This document shows, piece after piece, positions 41,017-61,802 of a stretch of 64,000 nt of DNA. Every line of letters starts with the position of its first letter. Positions within the stretch are counted from its first letter, which is position 1. The notes under the pieces are model-generated. The model was not told where the DNA came from. It ran no database searches and was given only the letters and a program-made list of their open reading frames with translations. Source of the stretch: Faecousia sp. (GTDB lineage Bacteria > Bacillota > Clostridia > Oscillospirales > Oscillospiraceae); NCBI GenBank assembly GCA_045614325.1, contig JAZLCU010000026.1, forward strand, positions 293 through 64,292, written 5' to 3'. A program made the position numbers and the translations under genes.

Positions 41017-41030
41017 AGTATAACCCCCTA

Positions 41031-41285
41031 TTATTGCTTAATCTGTAAAGTTTCTTTAATATCTTTTACATCGTTTTTAATTTCGCCTAGTGTAATTTCG
41101 TATTGCGCGATAATTCCCGCAAACTTCGTGTTGATTTGGCGATTTTCCTTTATCTCTGCCATTAGCGTTTCTTCTCTGCGTACCGATTGCTTATAGATAA
41201 TCCATATAAAAACACCTAGCGCAATGGCTACCGCGATTGGAAAGCCAACAGTAGTAATAATTTCTACAAATGCTGCAACTTCCAT
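41031..41285 (-). CDS. Holin-like protein (BhlA/UviB-like)
   Basis: N-terminal TM with VGFPIAV followed by coiled coil. Confidence 0.6.
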   Translation of the reverse strand: MEVAAFVEIITTVGFPIAVAIALGVFIWIIYKQSVRREETLMAEIKENRQINTKFAGIIAQYEITLGEIKNDVKDIKETLQIKQ

Positions 41286-41297
41286 TAGTTCGCCCCC

Positions 41298-43028: not shown

Positions 43029-43031
43029 TTA

Positions 43032-44588
43032 TTACCCCCCAATCCAAAAGCAAGCAGTTCGCGTTCCGTCCATATCCTCAAATCGGCTATTGTTGCCGAT
43101 AATTAAATAGGTTGTTGCGTGTAAGTCTACCGCCTTTACGCCTTTATTGCTTGCCGTAAGCATTTCTTTATTATCTTTATATACGCTCATACCATCTTCC
43201 GTGATTTGCGTTTTCATTTCGCTGTCACTATTAGTAACTGTTAAGCCGGTATCATCAAAAGTAAATCCCGTGTTAGTTTGTACTTTTGCTACGCCGTTGC
43301 TTATTTCTTTTTGTATTTCTAATGTAACTTGCTCCGTGGTTATTTGTGCTTTTACGCCCTCTGTAAGTGTAGCAAGTTCGCCATTAATGTTTCCTAACGC
43401 CTCTGTAGTAATTTCTTCGATTTTCTGTACAGATGCGTTAATGCTGTTCGTGTTGATTTGTAGCGCCGCAATATCCTTTTTATTAAGTTCGTTTTCGTTA
43501 ACTACAAGCTCAATCTGTTTATTAACCTTATCCACCTTTGCGAAAGTCTGCGTTAGCGCCTCTCCGATTGTAGCAGGGTTAGTGTGCGTTTCGTTACTTT
43601 TGGCAAACTGCCAACTTGATTTCTGCGAATATCCGCCGGTATAAGTAATAGTATCATTTAGCAAGTAAGTTTCTATTGTACTACCATCTTTGGCGGTTAG
43701 TGCTATCTTATCGCCTAATTCTACTAAGTAATTACCGCGCCAGTTGCAGTTATAAGGTGTAATACTTAGCCCACCTACTGCGGCTAGTGCATCTTGCACA
43801 AGTGCGCCCACATCATCGCGCAAAGCCCAAAGTGCGTTATCTCTAATATACTGGGTTTCACCATCGCCGTTTTTAGCCTCTACATTATCACCCAACTCTG
43901 TAGCGCTTACGATTGCTGCAAGCCGCTTTGCGCTTTCGCTAGTAAGGGTAAAGTATTTACTTTTGTCGATTGCGTACGCAGGCGCGCCCGTTGCATCTAG
44001 GCGCTTAAATACAAGTTGGTTATTGTAGTTAATATAGTAAATGGTTTGCGTTACTTCTGCTATATCGTTTAATACTTCTCTAATGGTTTCAGTACCACTA
44101 AAGTTTGCGCGAGCCGCAAAAGATGCGCTCCAATCGTACATATCAGTTAGCAACACTCCAAAAGCGCCAATAGCATCTGCACAAGCCGCCGCCAGTTCTT
44201 CTAGTGTGTATTCTCCTAGCCCCAGTTCCTCATAAGTGTGCGCCGCTGCCTTTTCTATTACATCAAAAGCAGTTATAGTAAGGCTGTTTGTGTTTTCATC
44301 TCTTTTAATATCTGTAACATAAAATACAGGCATAGTAGAGGAATTATTAAAAGCAATACCAAGGGCATCGTTTTGGTTAATATATATGGCGCGCTCTTTG
44401 TCTAGCAGTTTAATAGTTGCCTTTTGGCTAATGCCATAACCGAAAAATTTGTTTTCGCCTACTCTATCAATAAGTATGCTTTGCAGCTTATCGTGCGCCG
44501 TAAAGGCTAAGGTAGAGCCAATTACTTCTACCTTAGCCGTAATAGTTCTTGTAGGGGTGTTAAAAATCTCACTATTTCCATTAATCAT
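43032..44588 (-). CDS. Phage tail/baseplate hub protein
   Basis: Position after distal tail gene; coiled-coil C-terminal half. Confidence 0.62.
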   Translation of the reverse strand: MINGNSEIFNTPTRTITAKVEVIGSTLAFTAHDKLQSILIDRVGENKFFGYGISQKATIKLLDKERAIYINQNDALGIAFNNSSTMPVFYVTDIKRDENTNSLTITAFDVIEKAAAHTYEELGLGEYTLEELAAACADAIGAFGVLLTDMYDWSASFAARANFSGTETIREVLNDIAEVTQTIYYINYNNQLVFKRLDATGAPAYAIDKSKYFTLTSESAKRLAAIVSATELGDNVEAKNGDGETQYIRDNALWALRDDVGALVQDALAAVGGLSITPYNCNWRGNYLVELGDKIALTAKDGSTIETYLLNDTITYTGGYSQKSSWQFAKSNETHTNPATIGEALTQTFAKVDKVNKQIELVVNENELNKKDIAALQINTNSINASVQKIEEITTEALGNINGELATLTEGVKAQITTEQVTLEIQKEISNGVAKVQTNTGFTFDDTGLTVTNSDSEMKTQITEDGMSVYKDNKEMLTASNKGVKAVDLHATTYLIIGNNSRFEDMDGTRTACFWIGG

Positions 44589-44600
44589 TTTTTAGCCCCC

Positions 44601-44957
44601 TTACAGTTCAATAAAATTTAGGCTCATTGGTTTATAAATTGTGCCATTTGGGTTAATGGTGTAGTACTCAGGCTCAGGCGTTCCAGTATAAGCGCTAATG
44701 GTGCTTAGTTCGCCGGTAGTAGGGTTTAGGTATGTAGCGCTTACTACATACCCACTAACCTCATTTAAAATACTTTGCATTTCGTCTGCGGTTGTGTGTC
44801 TAAATGTAATATAAAGTTTTACCTTTTTATTAACTATATCTATAACAGTATCTCCAGCCGCGTTTCTGCCGCTATTATCGCTTACTAAGGTTTCGTAGCC
44901 CACCTTTAAACCACTAACCATTGCGGAAAAGTCCGTGTTGTTAATTTTAAAATACAT
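44601..44957 (-). CDS. Distal tail-like protein
   Basis: Directly after tape measure; SGRNAAG and FIEL end typical of this slot. Confidence 0.6.
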   Translation of the reverse strand: MYFKINNTDFSAMVSGLKVGYETLVSDNSGRNAAGDTVIDIVNKKVKLYITFRHTTADEMQSILNEVSGYVVSATYLNPTTGELSTISAYTGTPEPEYYTINPNGTIYKPMSLNFIEL

Positions 44958-44971
44958 AGGCTATTACCCCC

Positions 44972-47464: not shown

Positions 47465-47483
47465 TGTTTAGATTTGCCGCCCC

Positions 47484-47888
47484 CTACCTTTTTAATTTCT
47501 CATTGTGTAAGTTAGCAAACTGTTTAAAACGCGCCACCGCTAATTCTGTGGCTAGTTCTTCTTGTTTTCGTTTATTTTCTTTTGCTTGCTCTTCAAACAA
47601 ACTGCTATAAACTTCTTCTAGTTTTGGCATTTCTACCTCTTGAGAGAATAAACTAGCAATATTTCTACCTATTAGCCCTGCTAGTATGTAGTTATGCGCC
47701 GCTATTTCTTGCGCCCGTTGCTTTTCGCGCCGTTGCCAACTCTTTGTATAGCGGTTTAATTCGGCTATAGTCATTTCCCAAAAGTCAACTTCTCTTATGC
47801 CGCAATCTAAGGCAATATCTAAATAACTATAAAGAAATTCTTCGAAAGTGCGGAAAGGCTCTTGCGCCTCTCCCTCAGTTAGTTTTTT
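47484..47888 (-). CDS. Tail assembly chaperone, -1 frameshift extension (gpGT-like)
   Basis: -1 frame open from the slippery site A AAA AAC (47,888-47,882) into MTIAELNRY. Confidence 0.8.
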   Translation of the reverse strand, partial: KKLTEGEAQEPFRTFEEFLYSYLDIALDCGIREVDFWEMTIAELNRYTKSWQRREKQRAQEIAAHNYILAGLIGRNIASLFSQEVEMPKLEEVYSSLFEEQAKENKRKQEELATELAVARFKQFANLHNEKLKR

Positions 47889-48208
47889 TCGGTGTCAACC
47901 TCTTTAGGGATTAGTCCGCTTTCTTTATAAATATCTAAGATAATATAAATAAACTCGTCTATAGTGTGTCCGTCTTCAATGTAAGCATCGAAAATATCGT
48001 AGGCATCATTTATACTTACGCCGTGGTTATACTGCTGCAATGCTGCGTGTAATACAGTAACCATTGCTGTTACGCTTGGCAGCATTTCCCCTTGTACATC
48101 AAAGATAGATAGGGGATTAGCGCCCAATGCCTTTTCTAGTGCTACTACATTGCGCGTATTCAAACGCAGTTTATATGTAGTGTTGTTTACTTCAAAATTC
48201 ACAAACAT
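47879..48208 (-). CDS. Tail assembly chaperone (gpG-like)
   Basis: Between major tail and tape measure genes; ends EKN-stop on the slippery heptamer. Confidence 0.8.
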   Translation of the reverse strand: MFVNFEVNNTTYKLRLNTRNVVALEKALGANPLSIFDVQGEMLPSVTAMVTVLHAALQQYNHGVSINDAYDIFDAYIEDGHTIDEFIYIILDIYKESGLIPKEVDTEKN

Positions 48209-48290
48209 TTTGTAATACCTCTTTTTCTAAAAATTTGTGGGGTAAAGGGCAAGAGGTTTAACCCTCTACCCCACCCCATATATGGGTTAA

Positions 48291-48674
48291 TTAGGCTTTA
48301 GCGCCCCATACCATTTCGGTATTAGGCTTAATGCCCAAAGTGTAAGTTAAAGCAGCGTTTACGCCAACGCCATCCAGCTTTACAGAACAAGTGCCACCGA
48401 AAGTGCAAGTAACGCCATCCGGCAACTCTACTTTCCATTCGCTCTGCTCACCGGCAGCGCTGTTCAGCTCTTGGAATTGTGCAGCCTCATATAGGAATTT
48501 AAAAGCAAGGCTATCGCCATAGTTTTTAATACCATCTGTGTAGGTGTGCGCTGCATCTGCCAAAGTAGTAATTTCGATAGCCTCAGTATCGCCGCCCAGT
48601 TCGGGAATTTCCATAAGGTTAGTTAATTCTACTTCGCCTTTGTATAATTTAATGTCCTTTGAAATAGTAGCCAT
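48291..48674 (-). CDS. Major tail (tube) protein
   Basis: IPELGG..E.IEITTL.D....Y..GI motif; terminator-like hairpin downstream. Confidence 0.8.
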   Translation of the reverse strand: MATISKDIKLYKGEVELTNLMEIPELGGDTEAIEITTLADAAHTYTDGIKNYGDSLAFKFLYEAAQFQELNSAAGEQSEWKVELPDGVTCTFGGTCSVKLDGVGVNAALTYTLGIKPNTEMVWGAKA

Positions 48675-48688
48675 AATAAGTAGCCCCC

Positions 48689-49033
48689 TTAATAGTTTTC
48701 TAAGGCTAACGCCTCATAAGTCATAATTTTCTGTATCATTGCGCTGTTGGTATCGTACAATTCGTTACTGCTAGTACGCTTAAAACCAATAGCGCGCAAA
48801 GCGTTATCTACTTGTACTGCGTATTTCATAATATCGGCTATATTGTTAGCCCATACTTTAACAGTAAAACTAATAACGCTATAGCCTCTTGTATTGCCAG
48901 TAGTAGAAACATAATTGTTTCGCTCTTGGTAACTGATACAAGGGGTTTTAGTTTTGCTTGTTAGCGCTAGTTCATAATGAGTAGGCAATACTGTATTAAG
49001 CGCGCTAACCACTTCTTTATTATAATCAATCAT
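48689..49033 (-). CDS. Tail terminator-like protein
   Basis: Size, P.ISY.E motif, position before the major tail gene. Confidence 0.6.
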   Translation of the reverse strand: MIDYNKEVVSALNTVLPTHYELALTSKTKTPCISYQERNNYVSTTGNTRGYSVISFTVKVWANNIADIMKYAVQVDNALRAIGFKRTSSNELYDTNSAMIQKIMTYEALALENY

Positions 49034-49451
49034 TGCCCTTTATACCCTCTCTAAGTATCTGTAGTATCTGCTCTCTATTCTCATCGATTGCAGGGCGCAT
49101 ATAGGGGTGTGGGTGCATACCACAAGTAGCAACAAACTCGCCCGTTTTTATATCTTTATATATCCACGGCACATCTTTTCTTCCGCCCATTGGGTGTACG
49201 CTAAAAATGCCCGTTCCGTATTCTATGTACGGCGCATACTCTAGGTTAGTAAATACAATACCTTGTAGGTTTTCTACTTTACTCTGTATGCTATTTCTTA
49301 ATTCGCCGCTTACCTTTGGTGCTTTCTGCTTTGCCGCCCTTTCCACAAGCAAACAAGCCTTGGTAAGCGCTTTATTTACTGTTTCTTCGCTTACCAAACT
49401 ATCTAGGCTTTCTAATATTTCGTCTAATCCCTCAAATTTAATTTCACTCAT
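49026..49451 (-). CDS. HK97 gp10-like neck/tail completion protein
   Basis: AP..SGELRNSI, EYAPYIEYGT, PYMRPA. Confidence 0.82.
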   Translation of the reverse strand: MSEIKFEGLDEILESLDSLVSEETVNKALTKACLLVERAAKQKAPKVSGELRNSIQSKVENLQGIVFTNLEYAPYIEYGTGIFSVHPMGGRKDVPWIYKDIKTGEFVATCGMHPHPYMRPAIDENREQILQILREGIKGND

Positions 49452-49734
49452 ATTTTGCTAAAAACACTTGTTTTAATCTGCCAGTAGGGTTTACATACAA
49501 AACCTTTAGTTTGCTTTCTCCAAACTGTATTAAGTATGTATCATCTACATTTGCGTTTGTTAATCCTATATAGTTAGCGCCAGTATAGTTAATATTACCT
49601 TGTACGGATTGACTAGTAACATAAATAGCCATTTTGATAGTACCTTGTGCTTGTTTGCTTAATTGTGGTTGTCCGTATGCGTCATTGCCTTGGTATAGAA
49701 AATAGTCATAGTTACGCATATCGTTATTAATCAC
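49444..49734 (-). CDS. Head closure-like protein
   Basis: Position and size; GTG start. Confidence 0.55.
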   Translation of the reverse strand: MINNDMRNYDYFLYQGNDAYGQPQLSKQAQGTIKMAIYVTSQSVQGNINYTGANYIGLTNANVDDTYLIQFGESKLKVLYVNPTGRLKQVFLAKYE

Positions 49735-49737
49735 CGC

Positions 49738-50031
49738 TTACACCACCTTGATTTTGCGCTTTCGGTTTAATACCTCTACAATATCTGCAGGTAAGCCATC
49801 GGTATAGGTTTCGCTAACGCCGCTAAAGTTCTGCGCGCTTATACCCTCTGTTCCCATTCTGTTTAGCTTAATAATAGTAATTCTTTCTGCCATTAATTCT
49901 AAAACGCTATCCGCGCTGCGGTTGCAGTATTCCTCTACCTCAGCTAATGCCATTCGATAACAAAGGTTAATTTGCGCGTCTGTATAGTTTGCGGCGGCAT
50001 CACCTAATAAAAGCTTAATTTCTTCTATCAT
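49738..50031 (-). CDS. Head-tail connector protein
   Basis: EEYCNR, NRMGTEG.S....GVSETY motif. Confidence 0.75.
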   Translation of the reverse strand: MIEEIKLLLGDAAANYTDAQINLCYRMALAEVEEYCNRSADSVLELMAERITIIKLNRMGTEGISAQNFSGVSETYTDGLPADIVEVLNRKRKIKVV

Positions 50032-50080
50032 TGTTTAGCCCCCTATTCTTTAAGGCTAAAGGGGTAGTAGTTACCCCTTA

Positions 50081-50857
50081 TTAACCAATAGTAATAGCGC
50101 AAACTTTGGTAGCATCGGTAAGTGCGACAATACCAAACTTACGCACCCAGTACATATTGTGGCGCTTGTCTGCATCGCGCTGGTACTCGGTTTCGGTGTC
50201 TTTCTTAATAAAGACAGTAACAGCCTCTTTAGTTGCTAAATAAGCCTTACCGGCAGGGATAGCCTTGGAAACGATAACGGGAACACCGCAAACAGAGCCG
50301 ATATAACCAGTACGCACAAAGCCCTCGCTGTACTTCAGATTATCGGCAAGAGCCTTGCGGATTTCTGCCTGCTCAGCAGGAGAAACAAGCATAAATAAGT
50401 TGCTCTCATCTTCCAAGTTCAGCTTGGCAATAGCATCTACAACAGTATCAAAGCCCCAAGCGTCATCGGTATGCTTAATAGTAGCCTTTTCATATTCTGC
50501 AACAGCCAAAGCGGTAAAGGTGTTTACCATAGAATCGGCGCTGTGCTGCAAGCCGGTATCAACTACCATAGCGTCTTGCATTTCCTGCTCATCATAGAAA
50601 GCAAACTTGCCTTGGTAAGTCTTAACTTCATATTCTGCCGGTACAAAGCTTACCTCGATTTCGGTGCTGTTACCGGCGCCCATTGCCAATTCTTCTACAT
50701 TGCCGGTAGAGGTATAGGTGTTAATCACCTTTTTCATACCTGCGCCCTCTGCTAAAGAGGTGTCAACAGTAAGATAGTTGTTTAAGTTAACCTTAGTAGT
50801 TAAAATATCGTTAATCTTGTTAGAAAGAATAACATTCTCGTATACTTTATGTGCCAT
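50081..50857 (-). CDS. Major capsid protein
   Basis: Follows scaffold; G.IG..CGVPVIVSK, ETEY.RD motifs; highly-expressed codon bias. Confidence 0.8.
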   Translation of the reverse strand: MAHKVYENVILSNKINDILTTKVNLNNYLTVDTSLAEGAGMKKVINTYTSTGNVEELAMGAGNSTEIEVSFVPAEYEVKTYQGKFAFYDEQEMQDAMVVDTGLQHSADSMVNTFTALAVAEYEKATIKHTDDAWGFDTVVDAIAKLNLEDESNLFMLVSPAEQAEIRKALADNLKYSEGFVRTGYIGSVCGVPVIVSKAIPAGKAYLATKEAVTVFIKKDTETEYQRDADKRHNMYWVRKFGIVALTDATKVCAITIG

Positions 50858-50874
50858 AATAAATAGCCCCCTTA

Positions 50875-51435
50875 TTAGTTATAAAGATTGTTGTATAGTT
50901 CGGGATTGGTACGCTTTAACTGCGCCAGTTCCGCTACACTCATTTTTTTAGCGCTCTCTTTTGTAATCTCTGCGCTGTTGCCGCCGTTGCCTCTTGGCGC
51001 ATTACCGGCAAGGCGCTTTTCCACCTCTGCCTTTACTGCGGCTTTAAAAAGTCTGTCCAGTTTGTCAATGTTTGCTTGGCTTGCCTCAATATCATCTGTA
51101 ATTGCTACAATATCGGCAAATTCGGCGCTTAGTCCTCTAGTAGAAAGTACTGTCTTTAATTCGCTCTTGTTCTTGTCAATGTTCATCTGTGCAACTAACT
51201 GTTCTAGTTCTGCGATTCTGTCAGCCTGTTCTGCCTTTACTCTTTCTTCGCCGTCAAGTTTAGACAAACTAATTTCTTTTTCGTGTTTCTTTTGCTGCGT
51301 TTTTAACGCTTGTGTTACGCGCTTATCGGTTTCGCTTTGGATAAGTGCTAATACTTCTTCTTGGGTATAAGTCTTTTGCTCTTGGGTTTCTGTAGTTTCT
51401 ACAGTTTCTACGCTAGCGTTTTCTACATTTTCCAT
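50875..51435 (-). CDS. Capsid scaffolding protein (DUF4355-like)
   Basis: KTYTQEEV, coiled coil, AVK.EVEKRL..P, NPELY. Confidence 0.78.
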   Translation of the reverse strand: MENVENASVETVETTETQEQKTYTQEEVLALIQSETDKRVTQALKTQQKKHEKEISLSKLDGEERVKAEQADRIAELEQLVAQMNIDKNKSELKTVLSTRGLSAEFADIVAITDDIEASQANIDKLDRLFKAAVKAEVEKRLAGNAPRGNGGNSAEITKESAKKMSVAELAQLKRTNPELYNNLYN

Positions 51436-51540
51436 TGTTAAAACTCCTTTAAGTTGCGGCATTATGTAAACCGCCCCTTTTAAATAAAATTTAGTTGTTT
51501 CTTTAACGCCTAACCCCTATACAAAAGGCAATATAATTTT

Positions 51541-52317
51541 TTACTCAATTACCGGCAGCAAAGAGCATCTACAATTAGGATGTGCTGGGATTGGTAACTT
51601 TTCGCCCACTCGGTAAACCTTTCTATGCAGTTTGCCGCAAATCTCGCAGCGCCGCTCGTCTTTGTCTGCCCATACTTCTACAAAATTTACCCCACTATCT
51701 AAATATCTATCCTGGGCTGCTTTAATTTGTATATGCGCCATTTCAGTTCTAACTAACATATCAGCCCTGCTATAACTCACATTAAAAGAATCCATAAGCA
51801 TTCCCTTTAGAAAGTCGGGGTTTTTACCAGTAAGTAAACAATCTAGTAAATTATCATTTAGGGATTGGTGCAAACGCTCTGTATTTTCCCATATGCGTTC
51901 GCTCCAGCTCTTACCATCAGCGCACCAAATGGTATTTATCATACTTTCGATTGCTTTAGTATCTAGTTGGGTATAGTGTGCCTCACCTTGTACCGCCAAA
52001 CTATCATATATTTGTTGGTACTGCATAACGAAAGCCCTATTTAAAATACCGGCTTGTGCCTTTCCCAGTTTCTCTAGTTCTTTCGCTACATCGGCTTGCA
52101 TTTTCCAGTAGGTATCTAGTTTATATAAATCTGCCGGCGTTGGCTCTCTGCCCTCTGCTATACTTAAAAGTACTCTATTATAAGTTTCTCTAAATTGCCC
52201 AATAATTTTATATTGTGCTTTGTTATAATACATTGCTACTCTATCTTCTATATGCTCTATGCTCTTTTTGGTTAGTTCCGCTTGTGTTGCGGCTTGCCGT
52301 TCTTCCCAATAGCCCAT
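51541..52317 (-). CDS. Minor head protein (SPP1 gp7 / Mu F-like)
   Basis: YWEER, WSERIW, LVRTE, C..C, P.HPNCRC. Confidence 0.85.
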   Translation of the reverse strand: MGYWEERQAATQAELTKKSIEHIEDRVAMYYNKAQYKIIGQFRETYNRVLLSIAEGREPTPADLYKLDTYWKMQADVAKELEKLGKAQAGILNRAFVMQYQQIYDSLAVQGEAHYTQLDTKAIESMINTIWCADGKSWSERIWENTERLHQSLNDNLLDCLLTGKNPDFLKGMLMDSFNVSYSRADMLVRTEMAHIQIKAAQDRYLDSGVNFVEVWADKDERRCEICGKLHRKVYRVGEKLPIPAHPNCRCSLLPVIE

Positions 52318-52318
52318 A

Positions 52319-53656
52319 TTAGTTTACCTCTTGCGCCTCTGTTTCTTCGGTATCAGTACCAAAAGCACCAAAGCCGTATAAACTCATATTGGCTGCTTTT
52401 TGCTCTTGTAGCGCCTCTAACTCTGCGTTAACATCATCAATAAATGGCAGTTGCGCCAGTAGGGTAGCATCACTTACAGAGCCTTTTAGCGCGTTAACCA
52501 TATTGATAAGTGCCGTTTCGTCTTCGGGAATATTGCGCTTAAAGTCTATGGTAATATCTCTAAATACTTCTTCTCCATATTTCAAAGTAGCAACACCGCA
52601 AATAATCTCTACTCTGCGTTGTAGTGCTTTCTTCATAACTGCCTCAATCTTACCTGCGCGCGTTTCCATACCAGTTAAGCGGTATCTAATAGCAATACCA
52701 CTTGATACGCCGCCCACAAAAGTTTCTGCGCTAAAGTCGGGGCATTGCGCGATTCTATATATACTATCGTGTAGCCGCTTAATAATGTTTTCTACTTGCG
52801 TATCATTAGCGCTCTTGGTTAAGTAGTACATTTTAGCGCCGGTAGGAACACTAGCAGCTCTGTTTGCGCGCATAGCCGCAATATCGTCCGCATCTGCGTC
52901 TACGCCCTCTAGTACTAAATAGGCATCACAGAAAGCGCTAAAATCATCAATTTCTGCGCTTACCAATTCGTTTACTGCATCTTGTAAGCTCATAATGCAA
53001 TCAAAAATACTTTTTTCGTCTTGCAGTACCATAATATTGGCTGGGCATTGATTGAAAAAGTGCGGCTCTTCTCCTACAAAAGAAAGCGCGCCATTTAGCC
53101 CAAGCATTGTATAGTGCTTAATATCATAGTCGCTATATACATCTACATTGTATTTGTCGGTATCGCTCCATTCGTCTGCCTTGTACATACGCACAAAGTA
53201 CATTAAATCACCGGCTAGGCTATCATCATAAACGCCAAAGCAGGTATTAGGGCTAATCAACTTAAAGCGCGTTTGTCCATCATTATCAAAGTACATTAGT
53301 TCCGCAGCTACTCCATAAATTAGGGCATCTAGCAATAAGTCGGCGTCTTGTGCTTGGTAATCGTTATAGCGCAGTATCTGCATAATTTCCTCAATATCGT
53401 TTTTGCTGCTGTAGCTAATGTAACTTGGCGTTGCCAGGTAGCCGGTGTAAGAATCACAAATGTTCTTACAGTAGTTAATTACCGATTTATTACAAGGCTT
53501 GCTTTCATCTGCATATGCTTTCTGTAAAATCTGCTGCTTTCCATCGTAATAGTTTTTATATCGTTGTAACTTAGGCTTTACATTTAGGTTAAATCTACTA
53601 ATCATCTTTTGTAATAATTCTGTAGTTAATGTTGTATTTCTGTTTAAATAAAACAT
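52319..53656 (-). CDS. Portal protein (SPP1 gp6-like)
   Basis: YYDGKQ.IL, NY...I.D...GY, SG.AIRYRL, LQRR, S..TLL..LPF. Confidence 0.9.
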   Translation of the reverse strand: MFYLNRNTTLTTELLQKMISRFNLNVKPKLQRYKNYYDGKQQILQKAYADESKPCNKSVINYCKNICDSYTGYLATPSYISYSSKNDIEEIMQILRYNDYQAQDADLLLDALIYGVAAELMYFDNDGQTRFKLISPNTCFGVYDDSLAGDLMYFVRMYKADEWSDTDKYNVDVYSDYDIKHYTMLGLNGALSFVGEEPHFFNQCPANIMVLQDEKSIFDCIMSLQDAVNELVSAEIDDFSAFCDAYLVLEGVDADADDIAAMRANRAASVPTGAKMYYLTKSANDTQVENIIKRLHDSIYRIAQCPDFSAETFVGGVSSGIAIRYRLTGMETRAGKIEAVMKKALQRRVEIICGVATLKYGEEVFRDITIDFKRNIPEDETALINMVNALKGSVSDATLLAQLPFIDDVNAELEALQEQKAANMSLYGFGAFGTDTEETEAQEVN

Positions 53657-53670
53657 CTATTGTAACCCCC

Positions 53671-54894
53671 TTAAAATAAGTTTTTATCTAGGGCTTTTAA
53701 CTTTGTTCCTACGCATTGTAAACTGTAGCGTAAAGCATCTATATAGTGGTTAAAATCGTCTATAGGTTTGTTAATATAAAGCCCCGTGTTTTTGTCTTTT
53801 TGGTAGGTGTAATTTTCAAACTCCGTTATAATTCCAGTACAGTTAGGGTGAATAATAATTTGGTAGTTTTGCAGCTTTTGTATGCCGTGCATTATACTAT
53901 CCGCTCCCTTAGTGCAAGGTTTAATCTTTTGTATGCCCTCTGCCTTAATTTCTGCAATACTCTTAGGTTCTGCACAATCTGCCACTATTACGGATTTACT
54001 AAGCCCCATACTCTTTATAATGTTTGCTAAGTCTTTATTGGTTTTACCAGTAGAGCCGTACTCTTTAAATACATATATGCGCCCTTGCTCTTCACATAGT
54101 AGCGCCGCCGTTATCGCGCTTAAATCGTGGATATAACCGAAATCCAAGCCTACCATTAACTGCCCTTGCTTTTCTTCGTGGTTAAAATCTTCTACTTTCC
54201 AGTTTTGGAATATAAGCCCCTCTGCATCTACACCCCATTCGCCATCGCAGAATACGCGCGCTTTCTGTGGGTTTCTTGTGTATAACTCCTCTAGTTCTGC
54301 TATATATTCAGCATTTAAAAAATGATTGTCCTTATATGTGCTGTGGGTAAATATATAGTTGCTAGGTGGGTTTACCTCGCAAAAATCGTATAGCCAATGG
54401 TTTTTACTAATAGGGTTAAATGCCATTAGTATTTGTTGGTTGGGTGTATCACCGCGCAAACGCAGGTTAAGTTGCTCTACTATTGGCTTGGGTACTTCAA
54501 AAACTTCCTCTATGAATATGCAGCCAATATTATTTAAAGAAAGTAGTTTAGTTTCTTCGTCCAATCCAATAAATATAATTTCACTACCATTTGGAAAGCG
54601 TATATTAAAGTCGGTTTCGCGTATCTTTACGAATTGTGTTAACTGCCATTTGGCTAGTATGTCTTTAAATAGGCTAAAACAAGTGTTTCTAAGCGTTGCG
54701 CCGGTGCGCCTACATACTAGAATCTTAATTTTTTCTCTACAAGCACGAATGATAAGTTTTTGCGTTATAAAATAACTTTTTGCGCTACCTGCGCTACCCA
54801 TATAAATTTCCCATCTGTGGGAATAGTCCAATAGCAAAGGGAAGAATTTAGGCACAAATAAATTTTTGTTTAAATTTAGTTGTATTTGTGCCAT
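53671..54894 (-). CDS. terL: Terminase large subunit (PBSX family)
   Basis: GSAGSAKS Walker A, IFIEE Walker B, FNP, HSTYKDN, GLDFG, NHYIDALRY. Confidence 0.93.
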   Translation of the reverse strand: MAQIQLNLNKNLFVPKFFPLLLDYSHRWEIYMGSAGSAKSYFITQKLIIRACREKIKILVCRRTGATLRNTCFSLFKDILAKWQLTQFVKIRETDFNIRFPNGSEIIFIGLDEETKLLSLNNIGCIFIEEVFEVPKPIVEQLNLRLRGDTPNQQILMAFNPISKNHWLYDFCEVNPPSNYIFTHSTYKDNHFLNAEYIAELEELYTRNPQKARVFCDGEWGVDAEGLIFQNWKVEDFNHEEKQGQLMVGLDFGYIHDLSAITAALLCEEQGRIYVFKEYGSTGKTNKDLANIIKSMGLSKSVIVADCAEPKSIAEIKAEGIQKIKPCTKGADSIMHGIQKLQNYQIIIHPNCTGIITEFENYTYQKDKNTGLYINKPIDDFNHYIDALRYSLQCVGTKLKALDKNLF

Positions 54895-54901
54895 TACTCA
54901 C

Positions 54902-55591
54902 TCACCCCCACTGTTCCGCCATTGCCAGCGCAACACCCTCAAAAGTTTTAGAGCGCTCTTTCTGTCTGGTTTTGCCGCTACCCTCGTTATACCAACGGCT
55001 CATAGTTCTTGTACTGCCGTCTTTAGCGGTATAGCTATATATATCAGGCGCAACAATATTAGTTGGGGTTAAGGGCTGCACACCTTTTAACCATAAGCAA
55101 GTAGCTTTTCTTGCGTTATGCCCATATTCGTATGGTTGGATAATTTGTGTGGGTTTCACCGGCAAGCCATACTCTTTGCATAAGTCCGGAAACCATTTTT
55201 TTATGTAATCCCCACTCATAATGCCTATGGGGTTTTCTATAACTATTTTGTCGCAATCAGCTTTTAAGAATTGAGCAAAAAACCTTACACCCTCTTCTTG
55301 CCGTCCGTCTGCTCTCTTTTTCTCAAAATGTCTTGCTCCACTAACTGCTAAATGGGTACAAGGTGGGAACGCTATAATCATATCCCATTTGCCCTCTTGC
55401 CGGTGGTGTACACCATCGCAAGTAGTAAACTCACAATTACCATTTAATAGCGGTAATACATCTTGTTTAATATGCCACTCAGGATAGCCCCCACTACAAT
55501 CTTCAATATCGCAGCTAAAAGCAATATGCCCCTTATCTCTAAACGCTTTGCACACTCTTTGGCTTTCTTCACAAGCCACTAAAACATACAT
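54902..55591 (-). CDS. Phage DNA cytosine methyltransferase-like protein
   Basis: VLVACEES, SCDI, FPPCT (PC catalytic motif), IENP, K.TCLW. Confidence 0.72.
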   Translation of the reverse strand: MYVLVACEESQRVCKAFRDKGHIAFSCDIEDCSGGYPEWHIKQDVLPLLNGNCEFTTCDGVHHRQEGKWDMIIAFPPCTHLAVSGARHFEKKRADGRQEEGVRFFAQFLKADCDKIVIENPIGIMSGDYIKKWFPDLCKEYGLPVKPTQIIQPYEYGHNARKATCLWLKGVQPLTPTNIVAPDIYSYTAKDGSTRTMSRWYNEGSGKTRQKERSKTFEGVALAMAEQWG

Positions 55592-55601
55592 CTACATTTC
55601 T

Positions 55602-56369
55602 TCACCCCTTTAGTAGCGCGCCCCAAGTCTTAGCGCCTACAATGCCATCTTGTTCTAACCCTCTAGCCTTTTGAAATGCAATAACCGCATTATAGGTTGC
55701 TTGTCCAAAAGAGCCGTCTACGCCATAAGTGCGCCCATTGTTCTGCATCTTATAACCAAGAGCCAATAACAAACGCTGTAGGGTTTCTACCTGCGCGCCC
55801 TTGCTATTCTTTCTAAGTGTATCTAGTTCAATCATTACCTTTTTTACCTCTGCTTTCTGCGGCTGCGGCGTTGCTACTGCGTCAAGTTTAAGCGCGCCAA
55901 AGCCTCTAATATAGCGCCCATTAACCGCGATTGTGCGGCGCGCTACACTCTCTTTTATATTTCCCTCAATAACAGTAATAACGCCGTTTTCTACCTTTTC
56001 TACAATGCCAATATGTTCGGGGCTGCCTAAGTTATCACCCTTGCCGCTGTCTTGCCAATCATAAATAATCAAGTCCGCAGGCTGCGGTATATAGCCATCG
56101 TTCTCTATCCAAGTGCCATTTGCTTTTAGTAACTCAATCATTTTAATGCAGCTACACTCTACTGGCATAATGCCCACAGCACCACAAGCAACGGCAACTG
56201 CGCTTGTAAAGGTAGCGCACCATTCATCTGTATTATATTTAACCTTGTAGCCTCTTGGTAAAGGCTTTAGCGTATTGTAAGTATCAATAATTACTTTATA
56301 ACTTCCGTCTTTTTCGTTGCGCCCTAACCATTGCTGCGCTTGTTTTACAATATCGTTTCTCGTTACCAT
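55602..56369 (-). CDS. Endolysin: CHAP domain plus C-terminal peptidoglycan-binding domain
   Basis: WCATF, HIGIV, IEGN; VDG.FG..T..AV.AFQ..GL..DGIVG.KTW. Confidence 0.88.
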   Translation of the reverse strand: MVTRNDIVKQAQQWLGRNEKDGSYKVIIDTYNTLKPLPRGYKVKYNTDEWCATFTSAVAVACGAVGIMPVECSCIKMIELLKANGTWIENDGYIPQPADLIIYDWQDSGKGDNLGSPEHIGIVEKVENGVITVIEGNIKESVARRTIAVNGRYIRGFGALKLDAVATPQPQKAEVKKVMIELDTLRKNSKGAQVETLQRLLLALGYKMQNNGRTYGVDGSFGQATYNAVIAFQKARGLEQDGIVGAKTWGALLKG

Positions 56370-56372
56370 TAC

Positions 56373-56702
56373 TTATTCTCCAATCTCTATAACAATATCT
56401 GTTCTTAAATCTGCCTCTATCTTTTGCGCCGGTGCATATCCAAGGGAATCAAGTATATATTTATTGGCTTGAAAGCAGCCCTCGTTAGCCAGTTCTATCA
56501 TTTTCTTTTGCGCGAGGCTTTCCGCGTTTTTCCATTGCTCGGCTAATCTTTTCTTTAATTCCTCTTGAAATTCCGGCATCTTACGCCACTTGCCAACAGT
56601 TTTATTATTAAGGTTTAGTAACTCTGCTAGTTTTGTGTCGGGCATCATTGGATTGGCTAGCATTGTTTCTAATAGTTCTATCTGTTTGGGTTTTAAAGCC
56701 AT
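56373..56702 (-). CDS. Putative terminase small subunit (HTH)
   Basis: N-terminal HTH (LAELLNL..TV.KWRK.PEF), A.KYILD..GY; first gene of the late operon. Confidence 0.68.
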   Translation of the reverse strand: MALKPKQIELLETMLANPMMPDTKLAELLNLNNKTVGKWRKMPEFQEELKKRLAEQWKNAESLAQKKMIELANEGCFQANKYILDSLGYAPAQKIEADLRTDIVIEIGE

Positions 56703-56708
56703 TACTAC

Positions 56709-56765
56709 ACCCCCTCACACTTATGTGAATTTTGCCTATATATGATTTGCTTTTTTCGTCCAAAA
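56709..56765 (-). promoter_or_regulatory. Phage bipartite motif copy A (putative late promoter)
   Basis: GGAC-N28-TTCAC..GGGG, same spacing as copies B and C. Confidence 0.55.
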
Positions 56766-56771
56766 GCCTAT

Positions 56772-56973: not shown

Positions 56974-57450
56974 TTAATAATCCAGTAGCGCAACTAAGCC
57001 GCCAAGCCGTTTAATCTCTTTTAACGGGAATAAGTAAACGCAACTAATATTGTCATTGTGTTTTATCTCTTTATACTAATATTTTTTATAGTGTTCGCGC
57101 ATTACCTTAAAGTCTATAACAACTATCTTGCGCGCTGCCTCACTAACAATACAATAATACTAATAGTTACTATACATATTGCCCTTAGTATAATTGCCTT
57201 TATCAAACCAATAATTTTCTTCTTCGCATAACACATTGCCGGTTTCGTGTATGCGGCTATCGCCTTTTACTTCTAGCATATACTCTGTGCCATCTGCCGC
57301 TATTGCTTTTATATCGCCTTTATGGTAATATTCTTCTTGGTTGCTAACATCGATATAACTATGTTCTGCGTCAAGGTGCTGGAAAACTTCTAGCGCCTTT
57401 TGCTCTATCTTTTTAGCAGCGCTTAAATCATTCCAAAAGTCATAACTCAT
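56974..57450 (-). CDS. PD-(D/E)xK-like nuclease, 158 aa, requires readthrough of 2 TAG
   Basis: GD..LEVK.D..TGN motif; frame continues past TAG 57,162-57,160 and 57,078-57,076 to a TAA abutting the next RBS. Confidence 0.75.
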
Positions 57451-57626
57451 AGTAACCACTCCTGCAGCTCTGCGCCATCCATCATACCGGCTTGTGCCTC
57501 TAACTCCAGTAGCAGTAAATCAGCCTCTAATGCTTTTACTACTTTTTTCTTTGTTTCCAGCGCATCTATATAAATTGTGCCGCGAATAAGTGCCTACTCC
57601 ATAGGTGTATAAATTTCTTTTTCCAT
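57447..57626 (-). CDS. 59-aa hypothetical protein, requires readthrough of 1 TAG
   Basis: AAGGAG RBS; MEKEIYTPME*ALIRG..QEWLL; TGA overlaps the next ATG (ATGA). Confidence 0.72.
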
Positions 57627-57661
57627 TGTAATTTCTCCTTTTGTTTTTATTTGTTGGGTTT

Positions 57662-57716
57662 CCCCTACATCTATAAGTGAAAATTGCGAAAGTACACTTA
57701 ACAAAATTTGTCCCAC
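57662..57716 (-). promoter_or_regulatory. Phage bipartite motif copy B
   Basis: GGAC-N28-TTCAC..GTAGGGG upstream of the 57,626 gene. Confidence 0.55.
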
Positions 57717-57900
57717 AATTTCGAAAAATTTTTAAACTTTTCTAAACTTCTCTATTCTGCGTTAAAAAGTAGGTTGTGGGGCTGTGTGCGCCATCGTAAG
57801 CGTCTTTTATATTTTTTGGTATACTTACCGCCCCTATTTTTTCTCCTCTTGTGGGGACGCTGTGAGCCTGAGAGCCAAAAGCCAAAGAAAAAAGAGGCAG

Positions 57901-58095
57901 TTAGCCTCTTTCTTCGTAACTTTCTTGCAGGTATTGCAGCAACGCAGCTCGCTCTGCATCTGTAATTGCTTTTATTTCGTGCGCTAAGTCCATCATACCC
58001 AAGATATAATTATAACTGGCTTGGTTGCGTATCGCCTTAAAAATTGCGGCGGCAGCGTCCATTGTGCGCCGGCGCTTGGGAAAAAGTATTAGCAT
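57901..58095 (-). CDS. Hypothetical protein (TAG-free)
   Basis: GAGGGGG RBS, overlaps upstream stop; followed by gaggc-taact-gcctc-T6 terminator. Confidence 0.6.
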   Translation of the reverse strand: MLILFPKRRRTMDAAAAIFKAIRNQASYNYILGMMDLAHEIKAITDAERAALLQYLQESYEERG

Positions 58096-58358
58096 TTACG
58101 CCCCCTCTTTCTTTTGCGCTCCGGCTCTGCCTTATCCCAGGTTGCCATCTGTTCAAACGCTCCAATAGCGTAATTGGTTTGCTCAACTATTAAAGCGCTA
58201 TCGCAGTTAATAATTACGCGCCCAGTAAATCCGTCTTTTGTAAGTAGAAAAGTAACATTGTAACCGTCTATGCTTTCTTCTTCATACGAAATTCCGCGCG
58301 CCTCAAACATTTTGCAAGCTGTTTCGTATGCTGCCATTTGGCTTGTGTATTCTACCAT
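58089..58358 (-). CDS. Hypothetical protein (TAG-free)
   Basis: AAGGGGG RBS before MVEYTS; own sigmaA-like promoter. Confidence 0.62.
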   Translation of the reverse strand: MVEYTSQMAAYETACKMFEARGISYEEESIDGYNVTFLLTKDGFTGRVIINCDSALIVEQTNYAIGAFEQMATWDKAEPERKRKRGRKC

Positions 58359-58383
58359 AAATACTTCCCCCTTTTCTACTCGC

Positions 58384-58412
58384 CTTATATCACAATTTCC
58401 AGTATTTGTCAA
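58384..58412 (-). promoter_or_regulatory. sigmaA-like promoter
   Basis: TTGACA-N17-TATAAG with TG extended -10. Confidence 0.68.
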
Positions 58413-58426
58413 GCCCTTTTCTTGTG

Positions 58427-59128
58427 TTATACTAGTCTTACTAATTCGCCGCTAATCCAAAAGCAATTAGGCTTTCCTGTAGCCACTCTATTGGCGCAAG
58501 CGGTTAGCCCATACTTTTTAATCGCCTCTTTAGCGGTTAGTATTTGCGCGCTTTCCCCCTCTATCTCTATTTGCTCTAAGATTGCAACTGCGCCGCGCGC
58601 TGTTGCGGAATTACTGCCGCAAGGCAGTAATTCCAAATCTGTATTATCTATTGTATTATCTAATGTAGTATTTGTATTATTTCTTATTTCTTTTGGTAAT
58701 AACGCGTTATTACTTTTGGGCATAACGGCGTTATTACTTTTTGGTATAACCGCGTTATTACTTTTGGGCATAACGCTATCTTTTTCGTCATTACCTTTTG
58801 GTATAACGGCGCTTTCCATAAATAAATAACTATTGCTTTCGCCTTGTTGCACCAAGTAGCCCTTTTCTATTAGTTCTTCTATAGCGTTGTTATACTGCTT
58901 AATCTTAATACCAAAGTTAGCCTCTATTTCTTTACTGCTTAGCGCAAATTCATATCCGTGTTGGTTTTTCGCAAAGTATACCCAAAGTTTAAAAGCGCCA
59001 GCCGCCAGTTCCTAAGCGGCTTTTTCCATTGCTGTTATATTGATTGTTGCGTAAATGTTTTGCTTGTTGCAAACTTCCTTGTTTACCTTTACTACCTTTT
59101 GGTTAGGTACTGTTTTATAATTTGCCAT
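58427..59128 (-). CDS. Replication initiator-like protein, 233 aa, requires readthrough of 1 TAG
   Basis: AGGGGG RBS; MANYKT..AMEKAA*ELAAGAFKLWVYF..AIEELIEKGYL winged-HTH-like; TAG at codon 39; internal 24-bp repeats. Confidence 0.75.
58691..58812. repeat. 24-bp tandem repeats (putative origin iterons) inside the rep-like gene
   Basis: Repeated ttgg(g/t)(c)ataacNgcgttattact units encoding (V/L)(I/M/L)PKSNNA. Confidence 0.7.
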
Positions 59129-59144
59129 ATCTTGTTACCCCCTA

Positions 59145-59333
59145 TTATTGGTGTTTTCTTCTTTGGGTTAGTTGTCTAACCGCTATATGCAAGTCCAAGT
59201 TATCTTCAAATACATATGTTATAAACTATGGGAAATTCGGGTTAATGCCGGTGCGAATCAATCTAAAGCCCTATTCCCTCAGCTTTAGCGCTAACCACTT
59301 AGTATAAATTGTGTACTCTTTTTCGTTTGCCAT
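59145..59333 (-). CDS. DUF5659-like small protein, 62 aa, requires readthrough of 2 TAG
   Basis: GAGGT RBS; IYTKWLALKLRE*GFRLIRTGINPNFP*FITYVFED; TAG at codons 21 and 36; ends TAA. Confidence 0.72.
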
Positions 59334-59343
59334 TTTAGTTACC

Positions 59344-59484
59344 TCACTTTTTAAAGTATTCTTTTAGTGCTTGGCGCATAAGCTCACTAACTGTAATACC
59401 CTACGCCGCGCAATATTCTTTTACTTGCTGCTCTTGGCTTGCAGTAAGTCTAAATTTAATTTGCTTTTCTTTGCTTTCTTGCAT
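59344..59484 (-). CDS. Ribbon-helix-helix (CopG/Arc-like) DNA-binding protein, 46 aa, requires readthrough of 1 TAG
   Basis: QIKFRLT strand, helix, AA*GITVSELMRQALKEY second helix; TAG at codon 28. Confidence 0.75.
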
Positions 59485-59634
59485 CTTAATCCCTCGTTTT
59501 CTTGTCCCCCAAATTTTCTTATAAATATTGTGGGGGCTAGTGTTTGCTAACCCCCTATAAGAAAAAAGGAGAAAATATAATGTTCAATGGCTATGCTCTG
59601 TTCACCACTATTTATAAGTAGGAATACTGCCCTA

Positions 59635-59822: not shown

Positions 59823-60035
59823 ATGGCTAACAAGTATTTCACAGTTAAAACCGATGCCAAGAGCGGCAAGCAGATTGTCACTATTGACGCTAGCGTTATT
59901 CCCACTCAGGCAGAAAAGGATGTAGCACAGATGTATGTTGCTACCGGCGCTACTGTGCGTTTCAAGAGCGAGGCTCGCGCAACTATCGCTAGACAGCGCG
60001 CTAAGAAAAACGGCTTTGGTGCTAAAAAGGGCTAA
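59823..60035 (+). CDS. Small basic hypothetical protein (TAG-free)
   Basis: GAGGA RBS, 70 aa, Lys/Arg-rich C-terminus. Confidence 0.68.
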   Translation: MANKYFTVKTDAKSGKQIVTIDASVIPTQAEKDVAQMYVATGATVRFKSEARATIARQRAKKNGFGAKKG

Positions 60036-60044
60036 TATTAACTT

Positions 60045-60341
60045 ATGGATTTTAAGAATTTACAGTACGAAAAGGTAAAGTTCCCTTTAACCGATAAGGA
60101 ATTAGCCGAATTTTACAAGACATTAAACAAGATTGATTTTGGCTACTTCGAACAGTGCCTAGATGCCTCTTGTATCTATGAAGAGGATTTGGAGAAAATC
60201 GCACTTGTTAAGCGTATGTTGGAGCAGTTTAACGATGTTATCCGCCTCCGCCTTATGTGGCTCGAAGATAGTTGCGATGTTGTTTTGCCTTGTGATGAGG
60301 ATTCTATGGATAAAATCCTAGATAAATATTATAATCTCTAA
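60045..60341 (+). CDS. Small acidic hypothetical protein (TAG-free)
   Basis: 98 aa, follows the 59,823 gene; terminator downstream. Confidence 0.65.
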   Translation: MDFKNLQYEKVKFPLTDKELAEFYKTLNKIDFGYFEQCLDASCIYEEDLEKIALVKRMLEQFNDVIRLRLMWLEDSCDVVLPCDEDSMDKILDKYYNL

Positions 60342-60401
60342 GCCTCTAGCAAGCCCTATAAGCCGTTTTAGGCTTACCGGCTATCCCATTACCCTAAAAA
60401 G

Positions 60402-60451
60402 AATAAAACCCCTCTAGCGTGAAAGAAAAAGCCGCTAGAGGGGGTTTTATT
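60402..60451. terminator. Bidirectional terminator-like hairpin
   Basis: aataaaaccccctctagcg...cgctagagggggttttatt. Confidence 0.75.
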
Positions 60452-60590
60452 TTGCTAATCATAACCTATAAGCATATATAGTGCGGTATACACTCTTTAC
60501 CATTCACTAACTATATTTTACCAAAAATTTTTCGCTTTTTCAAATTTGCGCGCTTTAAACCCCCTGCTATTACTAGCAAGGGGTTTTGTT

Positions 60591-61568
60591 TTAGTAGTCT
60601 GTTCTTTTTACTGTAAGTGTGCGCTTTTGCTTACGCTTGATATTATCGAGGGGGTTAAATCTGTCGAAATCTTCCTTTAAGTCTTCGCTAAACAGTTTTA
60701 TGTATCTACGCGTCATATCAAGGGTAGCGTGTCCCAGTATGCGCTGTAGCCGTGCTATATCGCCGTTGTTTCTAATCCAAGCCTTAGCAAAGTTGTGGCG
60801 CAGTCCGTGTATGTTTGTACGCTCTACTTCGCGTTCCTTGCAGTACTTACTAAAAGATAATCTTAGCGCATTTGTGGTTAACTGCTCTTCGCCTACATTA
60901 CAGAACAGCCAAGCGTCTGCACCTGCGTTTCTGCGCCATACTCTAATATACTCTTTAATAGCGGTTTCTAGGCTACTGGAAAGTGGGATTACTTGTGCTT
61001 TCTTGTTCTTAGTATGTCCCAATACAATTTCCTTATTCTTAAAATCAATGTCACCAAGTTTTACATTGCAAATTGTGCTTGCTCTATTGCCCGTACCAAG
61101 CACCCAGTTTACAATGTAGTATGAGCGCCAAGTAGTAAAACTGTCTTGTTTACGGGGCTTTTCCAAGAGCATTTCTAGCTCCTCATCATCAAACAATTTA
61201 ATTTGCTCTTCTTGCGCCTCTATTTCGTGAATCTTAAACACCGGCATATACTCGCGCAGCTCGTCCATACACCAATAGAAAAAGGCTCTACAATCGCGCA
61301 AGTAGTGATTTATAGAGGTTGCCTTTACGCCGTCCAGTTTTAGTGTGTTCGCCCATTCATAGAACATAGACGGCTCTACCTTATCTATTGTGTCTGTTGG
61401 CTCTAGTTCGTGAAATGCCATAAAGAAAGTGTAGGATTGGTTATAGTTGCGTAGGGTTGCTTGGGATTTGTTGCGTCCCTCTTTCTCTGCCATAAACTCT
61501 TCGAAAGCCTCTCCAATGGTTATTGCATCTGCTTCGGCGCTTCTTTTGATTGTTCTTTTAACTCTCAT
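60591..61568 (-). CDS. int: Tyrosine integrase
   Basis: TGNR, K, HGLRH, LGH, TRRY catalytic residues; adjacent to the att repeat. Confidence 0.93.
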   Translation of the reverse strand: MRVKRTIKRSAEADAITIGEAFEEFMAEKEGRNKSQATLRNYNQSYTFFMAFHELEPTDTIDKVEPSMFYEWANTLKLDGVKATSINHYLRDCRAFFYWCMDELREYMPVFKIHEIEAQEEQIKLFDDEELEMLLEKPRKQDSFTTWRSYYIVNWVLGTGNRASTICNVKLGDIDFKNKEIVLGHTKNKKAQVIPLSSSLETAIKEYIRVWRRNAGADAWLFCNVGEEQLTTNALRLSFSKYCKEREVERTNIHGLRHNFAKAWIRNNGDIARLQRILGHATLDMTRRYIKLFSEDLKEDFDRFNPLDNIKRKQKRTLTVKRTDY

Positions 61569-61759: not shown

Positions 61760-61802
61760 GCTGATTACAAATCAGCTGCTCTACCAACTGAGCTATACCG
61801 GC
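61760..61802. repeat. att site, right (orphan 5' half of tRNA-Thr)
   Basis: 43-bp identity with 39,786-39,828; lacks T-arm and 3' acceptor strand. Confidence 0.95.

Follow-up and report, generated by a model that had tools for sequence, protein, structure and literature searches.

Phages with recoded stop codons are the closest described systems to the element presented here. Borges et al. (10.1101/2021.08.26.457843), who applied a threshold of a 10% gain in coding density, described eight clades, among them the Topaz phages of 22 kb, every one of which has recoded structural genes and lysis genes, and termed replication genes 'variable'; under code 11, nearly every gene of a Topaz prophage is broken into fragments. 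Pfennig et al. reported with Mgcod (10.1101/2022.06.29.495998) crAss-like phages with a dual-coded early block and a recoded late block, and a suppressor tRNA with a CTA anticodon in 225 of 303 code-11/15 genomes. Early blocks that are dual-coded and late blocks that are recoded were also described in 10.64898/2026.08.21.746148. Peters et al. (PMC9523058) provided proteomic proof that TAG encodes glutamine (Gln) in the structural proteins of two crAss-like phages, and Kienbeck et al. (PMC10879173) tied the switch to suppressor tRNAs. Here, a prophage is described from a 64,000-nucleotide stretch of a Faecousia sp. contig (JAZLCU010000026.1; the whole stretch is hereafter called the window), in which early genes contain in-frame TAGs while the virion-core and lysis genes do not, a layout that is the reverse of that of the published recoded phages. 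The original prediction, made from the sequence of the window, had filed the element as a known code-15 prophage and had missed this reversal. No description of an early-only TAG pattern was found in the literature searched, most subscription papers lying outside that search.

The prophage, its five TAG-bearing genes and its late module are the following:

39,829-61,802, minus strand: temperate prophage of the siphophage type, complete, 21,974 bp, recognized by its att cores, GC profile and gene map
59,344-59,484, minus strand: ribbon-helix-helix (RHH)/Arc-like regulator (PF01402, PF21983), 46 aa, TAG at codon 28
59,145-59,333, minus strand: DUF5659-like protein, 62 aa, TAG at codons 21 and 36
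58,427-59,128, minus strand: replication-initiator-like helix-turn-helix (HTH) protein (phrog_270/345), 233 aa, TAG at codon 39
57,447-57,626, minus strand: protein with no assigned function, 59 aa, TAG at codon 11
56,974-57,450, minus strand: predicted PD-(D/E)XK nuclease, 158 aa, TAG at codons 97 and 125
40,825-56,702, minus strand: late module of 21 genes (terminases, endolysin, portal, head, connector, tail and two holin-like membrane genes)

The five open reading frames (ORFs), their coordinates and motifs resembling ribosome-binding sites are all present in the sequence as the original prediction had them, together with the seven in-frame TAGs (59,401-03, 59,271-73, 59,226-28, 59,012-14, 57,594-96, 57,160-62 and 57,076-78). 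Their 558 codons hold seven TAG, four CAG and 18 CAA, and no TAA, TGA or frameshift was found in them, in agreement with the claim that there was no other lesion; the tight coupling asserted for these genes fails at the 233-aa gene, which is followed by a gap of 68 bp. The late module, in contrast, comprises 5,129 codons with 198 CAA/CAG and a single TAG (47,484-86), so that the five early genes (seven TAG vs. 22 CAA or CAG, hereafter CAR) differ from the 21 late genes (one vs. 198) with a Fisher p of 2e-6. The late TAG lies in the one other phage gene that had been said to carry one (47,457-47,774), eight codons before a TGA, and acts as a stop under either code. The integrase, two divergent small genes, two small genes at 57,901-58,358 and a second initiator (39,992-40,684) are TAG-free. 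When coding density was compared between codes 15 and 11, as had been proposed, the gain from code 15 was at most 7.7%, and early-only genomes would therefore score as standard code under the 10% threshold of the survey by Borges et al.

Relatives, labelled L, were gathered by scanning collections of viruses, metagenomes and genomes with the terminase and the portal protein, which yielded 117 loci at ≥45% identity. Together with the window these collapse to 68 groups, 29 of which were scored because they offered at least five Gln-type codons in early genes and at least 40 in late genes, while 39 were dropped for low coverage; a TAG was counted only when flanked on both sides by aligned identity to another group. 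TAG occurred in early genes only in 14 groups (the window, L001, L002, L014, L019, L058, L070, L104, L106, L131, L133, L137, L147 and L149), in both early and late genes in seven, in neither in eight and in late genes only in none. A group's own Fisher test gave p<0.01 in 13 of the 14 early-only groups (L002, p=0.053), which do not represent 14 independent events because they are kin, L001 and L002 being sisters. The late TAG fraction ranged from 0.05 to 0.52 in the groups recoded in both, and two of the eight groups recoded in neither had one doubtful late TAG each; the lone 'supported' TAGs of non-recoded groups proved to be mostly gene-junction artefacts of the gene caller. Judged from these sequences, the reversed TAG layout is a clade-wide state. 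Terminase identity was roughly 60-84% for the other 13 early-only groups and 53-63% for the fully recoded relatives. In a quick terminase tree the states were intermixed, with at least five changes for full recoding, at least four for the early-only state and no direction, and the window terminase was intermixed with those of fully recoded relatives of 22-24 kb. TAGs at terminase position 141 and portal position 16 are common to two close relatives with light recoding, which fits gain and loss of recoding alike.

Relatives were present in genomes of Faecousia sp., Acutalibacteraceae and Clostridia, and near-identical pieces were found in two bovine metagenome runs (contigs only). Viral scans with the nuclease alone or the 233-aa initiator alone returned no relative, and a terminase search of 400 same-family genomes gave none at E<=1e-80. 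A nuclease profile matched one of 300 same-genus genomes (G075, with two TAGs); this match probably duplicates a counted locus and was left out of the counts.

In this prophage, TAG is very probably a sense codon for Gln, an assignment that rests on aligned sequences. The aligned-residue profile at 86 TAG sites of the early-type phages was far closer to that of Gln (Kullback-Leibler divergence 0.07) than to those of Glu (0.35) or Lys (0.37). Similarly, TAG was found in five of 23 conserved Gln columns, compared with 4/123 for Glu, 3/137 for Lys, 0/153 for Tyr and 0/22 for Trp, and fully recoded relatives behaved alike, with TAG in 83 of 438 Gln columns. Pyrrolysine as the meaning of TAG was rejected, given that PylS and PylB were not found in the host assembly, which is 87% complete, and that the column profile is Gln-like. 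Within the window, four of the seven TAGs stand at Gln columns. Both TAG columns of the 62-aa gene hold Gln in 40/40 homologues, and TAG itself occurs at them in L010/L102 and L025/L086; the column of nuclease codon 97 holds Gln in 13 of the 17 closest homologues and in 22 of 53 overall, and two database proteins stop exactly there. The sole homologue of the 59-aa protein, in L131, has CAG at the TAG site and TAGs of its own elsewhere. In the DNA of other phages (L010/L102, L025/L086, L136 and L149), TAG also occurs at four of these seven sites, where it is not private to this strain, a condition that had been named as a refuter.

The view that these TAGs reflect recoding to Gln rather than decay is backed by the Gln-like columns, the shared TAG columns, the restriction of nonsense codons to TAG and the conservation downstream of them. 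The probability that all seven nonsense codons would be TAG was 5e-4 to 1e-3 under a single-base mutation null, and the early-gene alignments of the 14 groups contained 66 internal TAGs vs. eight TAA/TGA, which on inspection sit at gene ends or in spacers overrun by the alignment. Downstream of the first TAG, the nonsynonymous proportion of differences (pN) was far below the synonymous one (pS) in 15/15 comparisons, most of them saturated; for the nuclease of L001/L148 vs. L002/L145, dN/dS was ~0.02 downstream of TAG, and the L001/L002 pair differs in TAG at three sites. A contig of run X2 (215 nt, depth 3.5), 93.5% identical, showed no difference at the codon-97 TAG among the nine of 14 differences listed, and five of the six listed downstream of codon 97 were synonymous. 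The sequence context of the TAGs revealed no motif, and their +4 base resembled that of CAR codons.

Several domain models are matched when the TAGs are read through. The RHH fold is completed as claimed, PF01402 and PF21983 being matched across or beyond the TAG; the HTH-like fold is matched in the same way by HTH_36, but below the cut-off of that model, as is DUF5659 below its own. In the initiator, TAG codon 39 precedes the HTH (residues 52-92). The 158-aa gene is predicted to encode a PD-(D/E)XK nuclease, a prediction drawn from its alignment, in which D46 and K62 are invariant and E60 near-invariant, and from a structure model with a predicted local distance difference test score (pLDDT) of 93.5. 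The top fold matches of this model, all belonging to this nuclease class, were I-Ssp6803I, D212 and Hjc, the best at E=1.1e-3 and a template modelling score (TM) of 0.47, none reaching E<=0.001.

Across the 17 early-type groups, nucleases concentrate the TAGs. TAG was found in 13/13 genes of this nuclease (43 TAG, 41 CAR), including ten TAGs in that of L149, and in 4/4 genes of HNH/GIY-type nucleases (15 TAG, 9 CAR), so that nucleases as a whole (58 TAG:50 CAR) exceed other early genes (20:88) with p=1e-7, a value inflated by kinship. The virion core, the class used to define the groups, had TAG in 0/131 genes; among classes not used for that definition, terS had TAG in 0/17 genes (110 CAR) and the holin-like genes in 0/9, the label holin-like being given here from hydrophobic sequence and position, with no family match naming it. 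Four sense-like internal TAGs were nevertheless seen in late-operon accessory genes (L070, L137 and twice in L147), and of 194 late genes nine end in TAG, each with a TAA or TGA within the next eight codons; these late-operon TAGs and backup stops hint that readthrough persists late.

From the partition, the Gln-like columns, the conservation downstream of the TAGs and an intact release factor 1 (RF1) in the host, all of which were observed, we infer a translational lock that is opened by incomplete readthrough. RF1 of the host retains its PxT and GGQ motifs and scores above the TIGR00019 cut-off, and a second release factor was found beside it in the host search. In the lysogen, RF1 would truncate the regulator, the initiator ahead of its HTH and the predicted nuclease, which would add a translational lock to the genes most harmful if leaky, namely those that cut DNA or start replication. 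Upon induction, a switch probably shared with the fully recoded clade-mates would lead to the insertion of Gln at TAG. Readthrough would be substantial but incomplete, tolerated by early proteins needed at low dose and not by structural proteins needed at high dose, and selection would keep TAG out of the late module, so that both codes can read it. The early-only state would be one level in a nested order of TAG use (none, early only, early and late). Incomplete readthrough would explain at once the TAG-free structural genes, the enrichment in nucleases and the fact that late recoding never occurs without early recoding. To this mechanism as a whole, including the shared switch, a probability of about 0.6 is assigned.

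Several observations weigh against this reading. A CTA tRNA was detected by ARAGORN in none of 118 sequences at the default and 90% thresholds, and no protein family tracks TAG state or is confined to recoded phages. Three of the seven window TAGs (RHH 28, initiator 39 and nuclease 125) stand at columns in which homologues seldom or never have Gln: the first column holds His in 5/8 and Gln in 0/8, the second is variable with Gln in 0/19, and the third holds Gln in 3/53. The homologues were compared at the protein level, at which neither the codon used for a residue nor the genetic code can be seen, and a protein identical to the 158-aa read-through product in a European Nucleotide Archive (ENA) contig record may be either a code-15 call of a TAG-bearing twin or a CAR-bearing twin. 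Ten TAGs in one nuclease would need a high per-codon readthrough, which strains the word 'incomplete'. Pooled p-values are too strong because the groups are kin, and the hints of late readthrough are weak, amounting to four sites and to backup stops that non-recoded phages also have, within eight codons of 7/7 terminal TAGs.

The search for a switch covered further sequences and element types. CTA suppressor tRNAs have been reported in ~40% of code-15 phage genomes and are not obligatory. ARAGORN found no CTA tRNA in the window, in 60 loci or in 22 further loci; Rfam returned no suppressor tRNA, only the att tRNAs; none was present in any relative, fully recoded ones included; and no CTA tRNA was found in the host assembly, which is 87% complete. 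At an 80% threshold, seven of 537 matches were CTA, which is the noise level, and the window candidate at 60,389-60,476 forms one long hairpin instead of a cloverleaf. No protein switch emerged from the divergent small genes (59,823-60,341), which belong to at least three families that are also found in phages without TAG; the Atlas gave no usable match for two of them. No conserved non-coding element tracked TAG state among the matches listed.

Among the alternatives, the one that survives best is that the phage senses the code. It would have no switch of its own. Its integrase, second initiator and late module, all TAG-free, would let it operate under the host code, and translation of its early TAG module would depend on a co-infecting recoded phage that changes the code. 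The prophage would then combine a code-neutral lytic programme with a TAG-locked replication and nuclease module that is turned on only after another phage has set code 15. Both the alternative and this picture of the prophage are considered unlikely, though neither is negligible. The second, TAG-free initiator is present in nine early-only and four unclassified groups, and missing, where the junction was covered, in 3/3 fully recoded and 2/2 non-recoded groups, a distribution that is suggestive, the genomes being few. That no suppressor was found also favours sensing, a possibility raised by Borges et al. (10.1101/2021.08.26.457843) in their Discussion. However, the absence of a suppressor does not separate the classes, because fully recoded relatives lack one as well, and the second initiator also occurs in phages without visible TAG (L062, L074, L097, L180 and L181). 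Moreover, each of the three TAG classes conserves the nuclease gene in front of the terminase genes, and a core role is therefore suggested for it. The host assembly (87% complete) yielded no second recoded element: five candidate regions were read and all were non-recoded. If sensing were nonetheless true, the early-only state would be a distinct lifestyle and likely a stepping stone, and full recoding would have arisen several times.

It is quite improbable that readthrough is supplied by the host, that is, that gut Clostridia read UAG as Gln in some state, such as RF1 limitation, and that the elements exploit it. Near-cognate insertion of Gln at UAG under limiting RF1 is established in E. 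coli, no phage-borne switch was found in any class, and TAG ends only 66 of 1,011 host ORFs of at least 200 aa. Nevertheless, RF1 is intact, ordinary leakage at UAG is ~1% or less and could not yield a protein with ten TAGs, and readthrough of at least six host TAG stops would produce fusion proteins, since the following gene starts shortly behind them in the same frame; neither PylS nor PylB turned up in the assembly (87% complete). The use of TAG as a stop by the host, as had been claimed, is confirmed by priA (TIGR00595), which ends in TAG, but the companion claim, that host genes show no internal TAG, does not hold without exception: one kinase-like ORF of the host assembly (G000:C31:35087-35881, minus strand) has an apparent internal TAG, beyond which the reading goes on into an ATPase-like domain.

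A reverse temporal switch, in which TAG means Gln early and the standard code is restored before late translation, is very improbable. It would account for the sharp partition seen in terS and the holin-like genes, but no late gene needs TAG as a stop, as the 9/9 backup stops show, four internal TAGs occur in late-operon accessory genes, and the fully recoded clade-mates must read TAG late.

Decay or artefact, in which the second initiator would have allowed the five genes to become pseudogenes or the TAGs would be assembly errors, is the least probable alternative and already largely refuted. In its favour are full-length homologues, which reach 97% identity in the case of the 62-aa gene and 100% in that of the nuclease, and the three TAG columns that are not Gln columns. 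Against it, the only lesions are TAGs, with no TAA, TGA or frameshift, the same partition recurs in 13 other groups, TAG columns are shared with other phages and selection downstream of TAG is purifying.

The reading preferred here, an early-gene TAG lock opened by incomplete Gln readthrough, concerns a prophage whose remaining features are these:

61,760-61,802, minus strand: att core, by sequence identity a copy of the 5′ part of tRNA-Thr(TGT)
60,591-61,568, minus strand: tyrosine integrase (phrog_1), TAG-free
59,823-60,341, plus strand: two divergent small genes (59,823-60,035 and 60,045-60,341), 70 and 98 aa, TAG-free, no assigned function
57,901-58,358, minus strand: two small genes (58,089-58,358 and 57,901-58,095), 89 and 64 aa, TAG-free, followed by a terminator-like hairpin
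54,902-55,597, minus strand: DNA methyltransferase (phrog_757), starting ATG-TAG-ATG
39,992-40,684, minus strand: second replication-initiator-like gene (phrog_4707, PF13730), 230 aa, TAG-free, with short repeats of its own
39,753-39,828, minus strand: host tRNA-Thr(TGT), intact, holding the second att core (39,786-39,828)

The GC content is ~40% in the prophage vs. ~52% in the host, and identical 43-bp att cores were found at 61,760-61,802 and 39,786-39,828. Since the gene set runs from the integrase through terminases, endolysin, portal, head and connector to the tail, the prophage looks complete. The phage duplicated the 5′ part of tRNA-Thr and not its 3′ end, and the intact host tRNA-Thr/Tyr pair consequently now lies behind phage DNA (39,829-39,965), in which a TTGACA-17-TATAAT-like site was observed at ~39,964-39,936 (minus strand); in relatives, Thr(CGT) or another tRNA half is used in the same way. 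The start of the methyltransferase holds a possible eighth TAG, and its ATG-TAG-ATG form, which makes the gene readable under either code, is common to L058, L144 and L160 (55,597 in the window). The divergent small genes are candidates for immunity or for a code-switch factor; a further small TAG-free ORF, of 28 codons, follows the nuclease.

Both replication-initiator-like genes (39,992-40,684 and 58,427-59,128) contain internal repeats; those of the 233-aa gene have a 24-bp spacing (58,668-58,811) and constitute a predicted origin. In L131, L070 and L062, the second initiator occurs with no integrase beside it, and these forms are possibly plasmid-like. A tRNA-Ile(TAT) stands directly upstream of the TAG-bearing nuclease in the sister early-only phages (L001:7747-7823 and L002:3208-3283). 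A GGACAA...TTCAC(A/T)TA...GGG-type motif, possibly a phage promoter or operator, was observed on the minus strand ahead of the 59-aa gene (~57,630-57,720) and of terS (56,705-56,770), and its GGACAA part also ahead of the RHH gene (59,490-59,530, minus strand); the motif recurs in relatives. Another non-coding motif, ahead of the scaffold gene (51,463-51,545, minus strand), is kept in ~22 relative groups whatever their TAG state, and its short arms covary (GCCT/AGGC vs. GTCT/AGAC), which suggests an RNA hairpin or an operator for the head genes. In the head operons, recoded elsewhere, of the fully recoded relatives L018 (14377-15138) and L084 (16430-17191), a TAG-free three-gene insert was found that encodes two small proteins and an RHH protein and resembles toxin-antitoxin-type cargo. 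Elsewhere in the host assembly, two standard-code regions were noted: G000:C56:1-4300, in which a Walker A ATPase and short membrane proteins lie beside a tyrosine recombinase and which, from a reading of its gene content with no family search, appears to be a small filamentous-phage-like element, and G000:C67:1-10400, a cluster of head, tail and lysin-like genes.

In the published model, recoded stops time the late and lysis genes while early genes stay host-readable, and the small-phage tier described here does the opposite. That late recoding was never found without early recoding among the 29 groups bears on the origin, loss and purpose of phage recoding. Since early-only genomes fall under the density thresholds of surveys, recoding is likely undercounted and their early genes annotated as fragments. 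Moreover, the search space for a tRNA-independent switch is very small here, since the genome spans 22 kb, encodes few small genes free of TAG and yielded no suppressor tRNA.

Compared with the known systems, this prophage resembles the Topaz phages (22 +/- 3 kb): it is ~22 kb long, resides in a standard-code Firmicutes host, has TAG at Gln and keeps its integrase TAG-free, and the fully recoded relatives found in this analysis match the Topaz description, a likeness judged from that published description. Unlike in Topaz, whose structural and lysis unit uses the alternative code, this unit is TAG-free and TAG is restricted to early genes. With the block-coded crAss-like phages (10.1101/2022.06.29.495998) it shares a recoded block, a second block whose reading does not depend on which of the two codes applies, and TAG as Gln, but the blocks are swapped and no CTA tRNA was found. 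The homing endonuclease of the Agate phages (10.1101/2021.08.26.457843) offers a parallel in that a nuclease family prefers the recoded stop, which was read as a brake on premature expression; Agate phages differ in being large and virulent, in reading TGA as Trp and in recoding late genes too. The window prophage most likely represents a TAG-to-Gln recoding that uses the same code as the Topaz-type prophages with the opposite placement of TAG.

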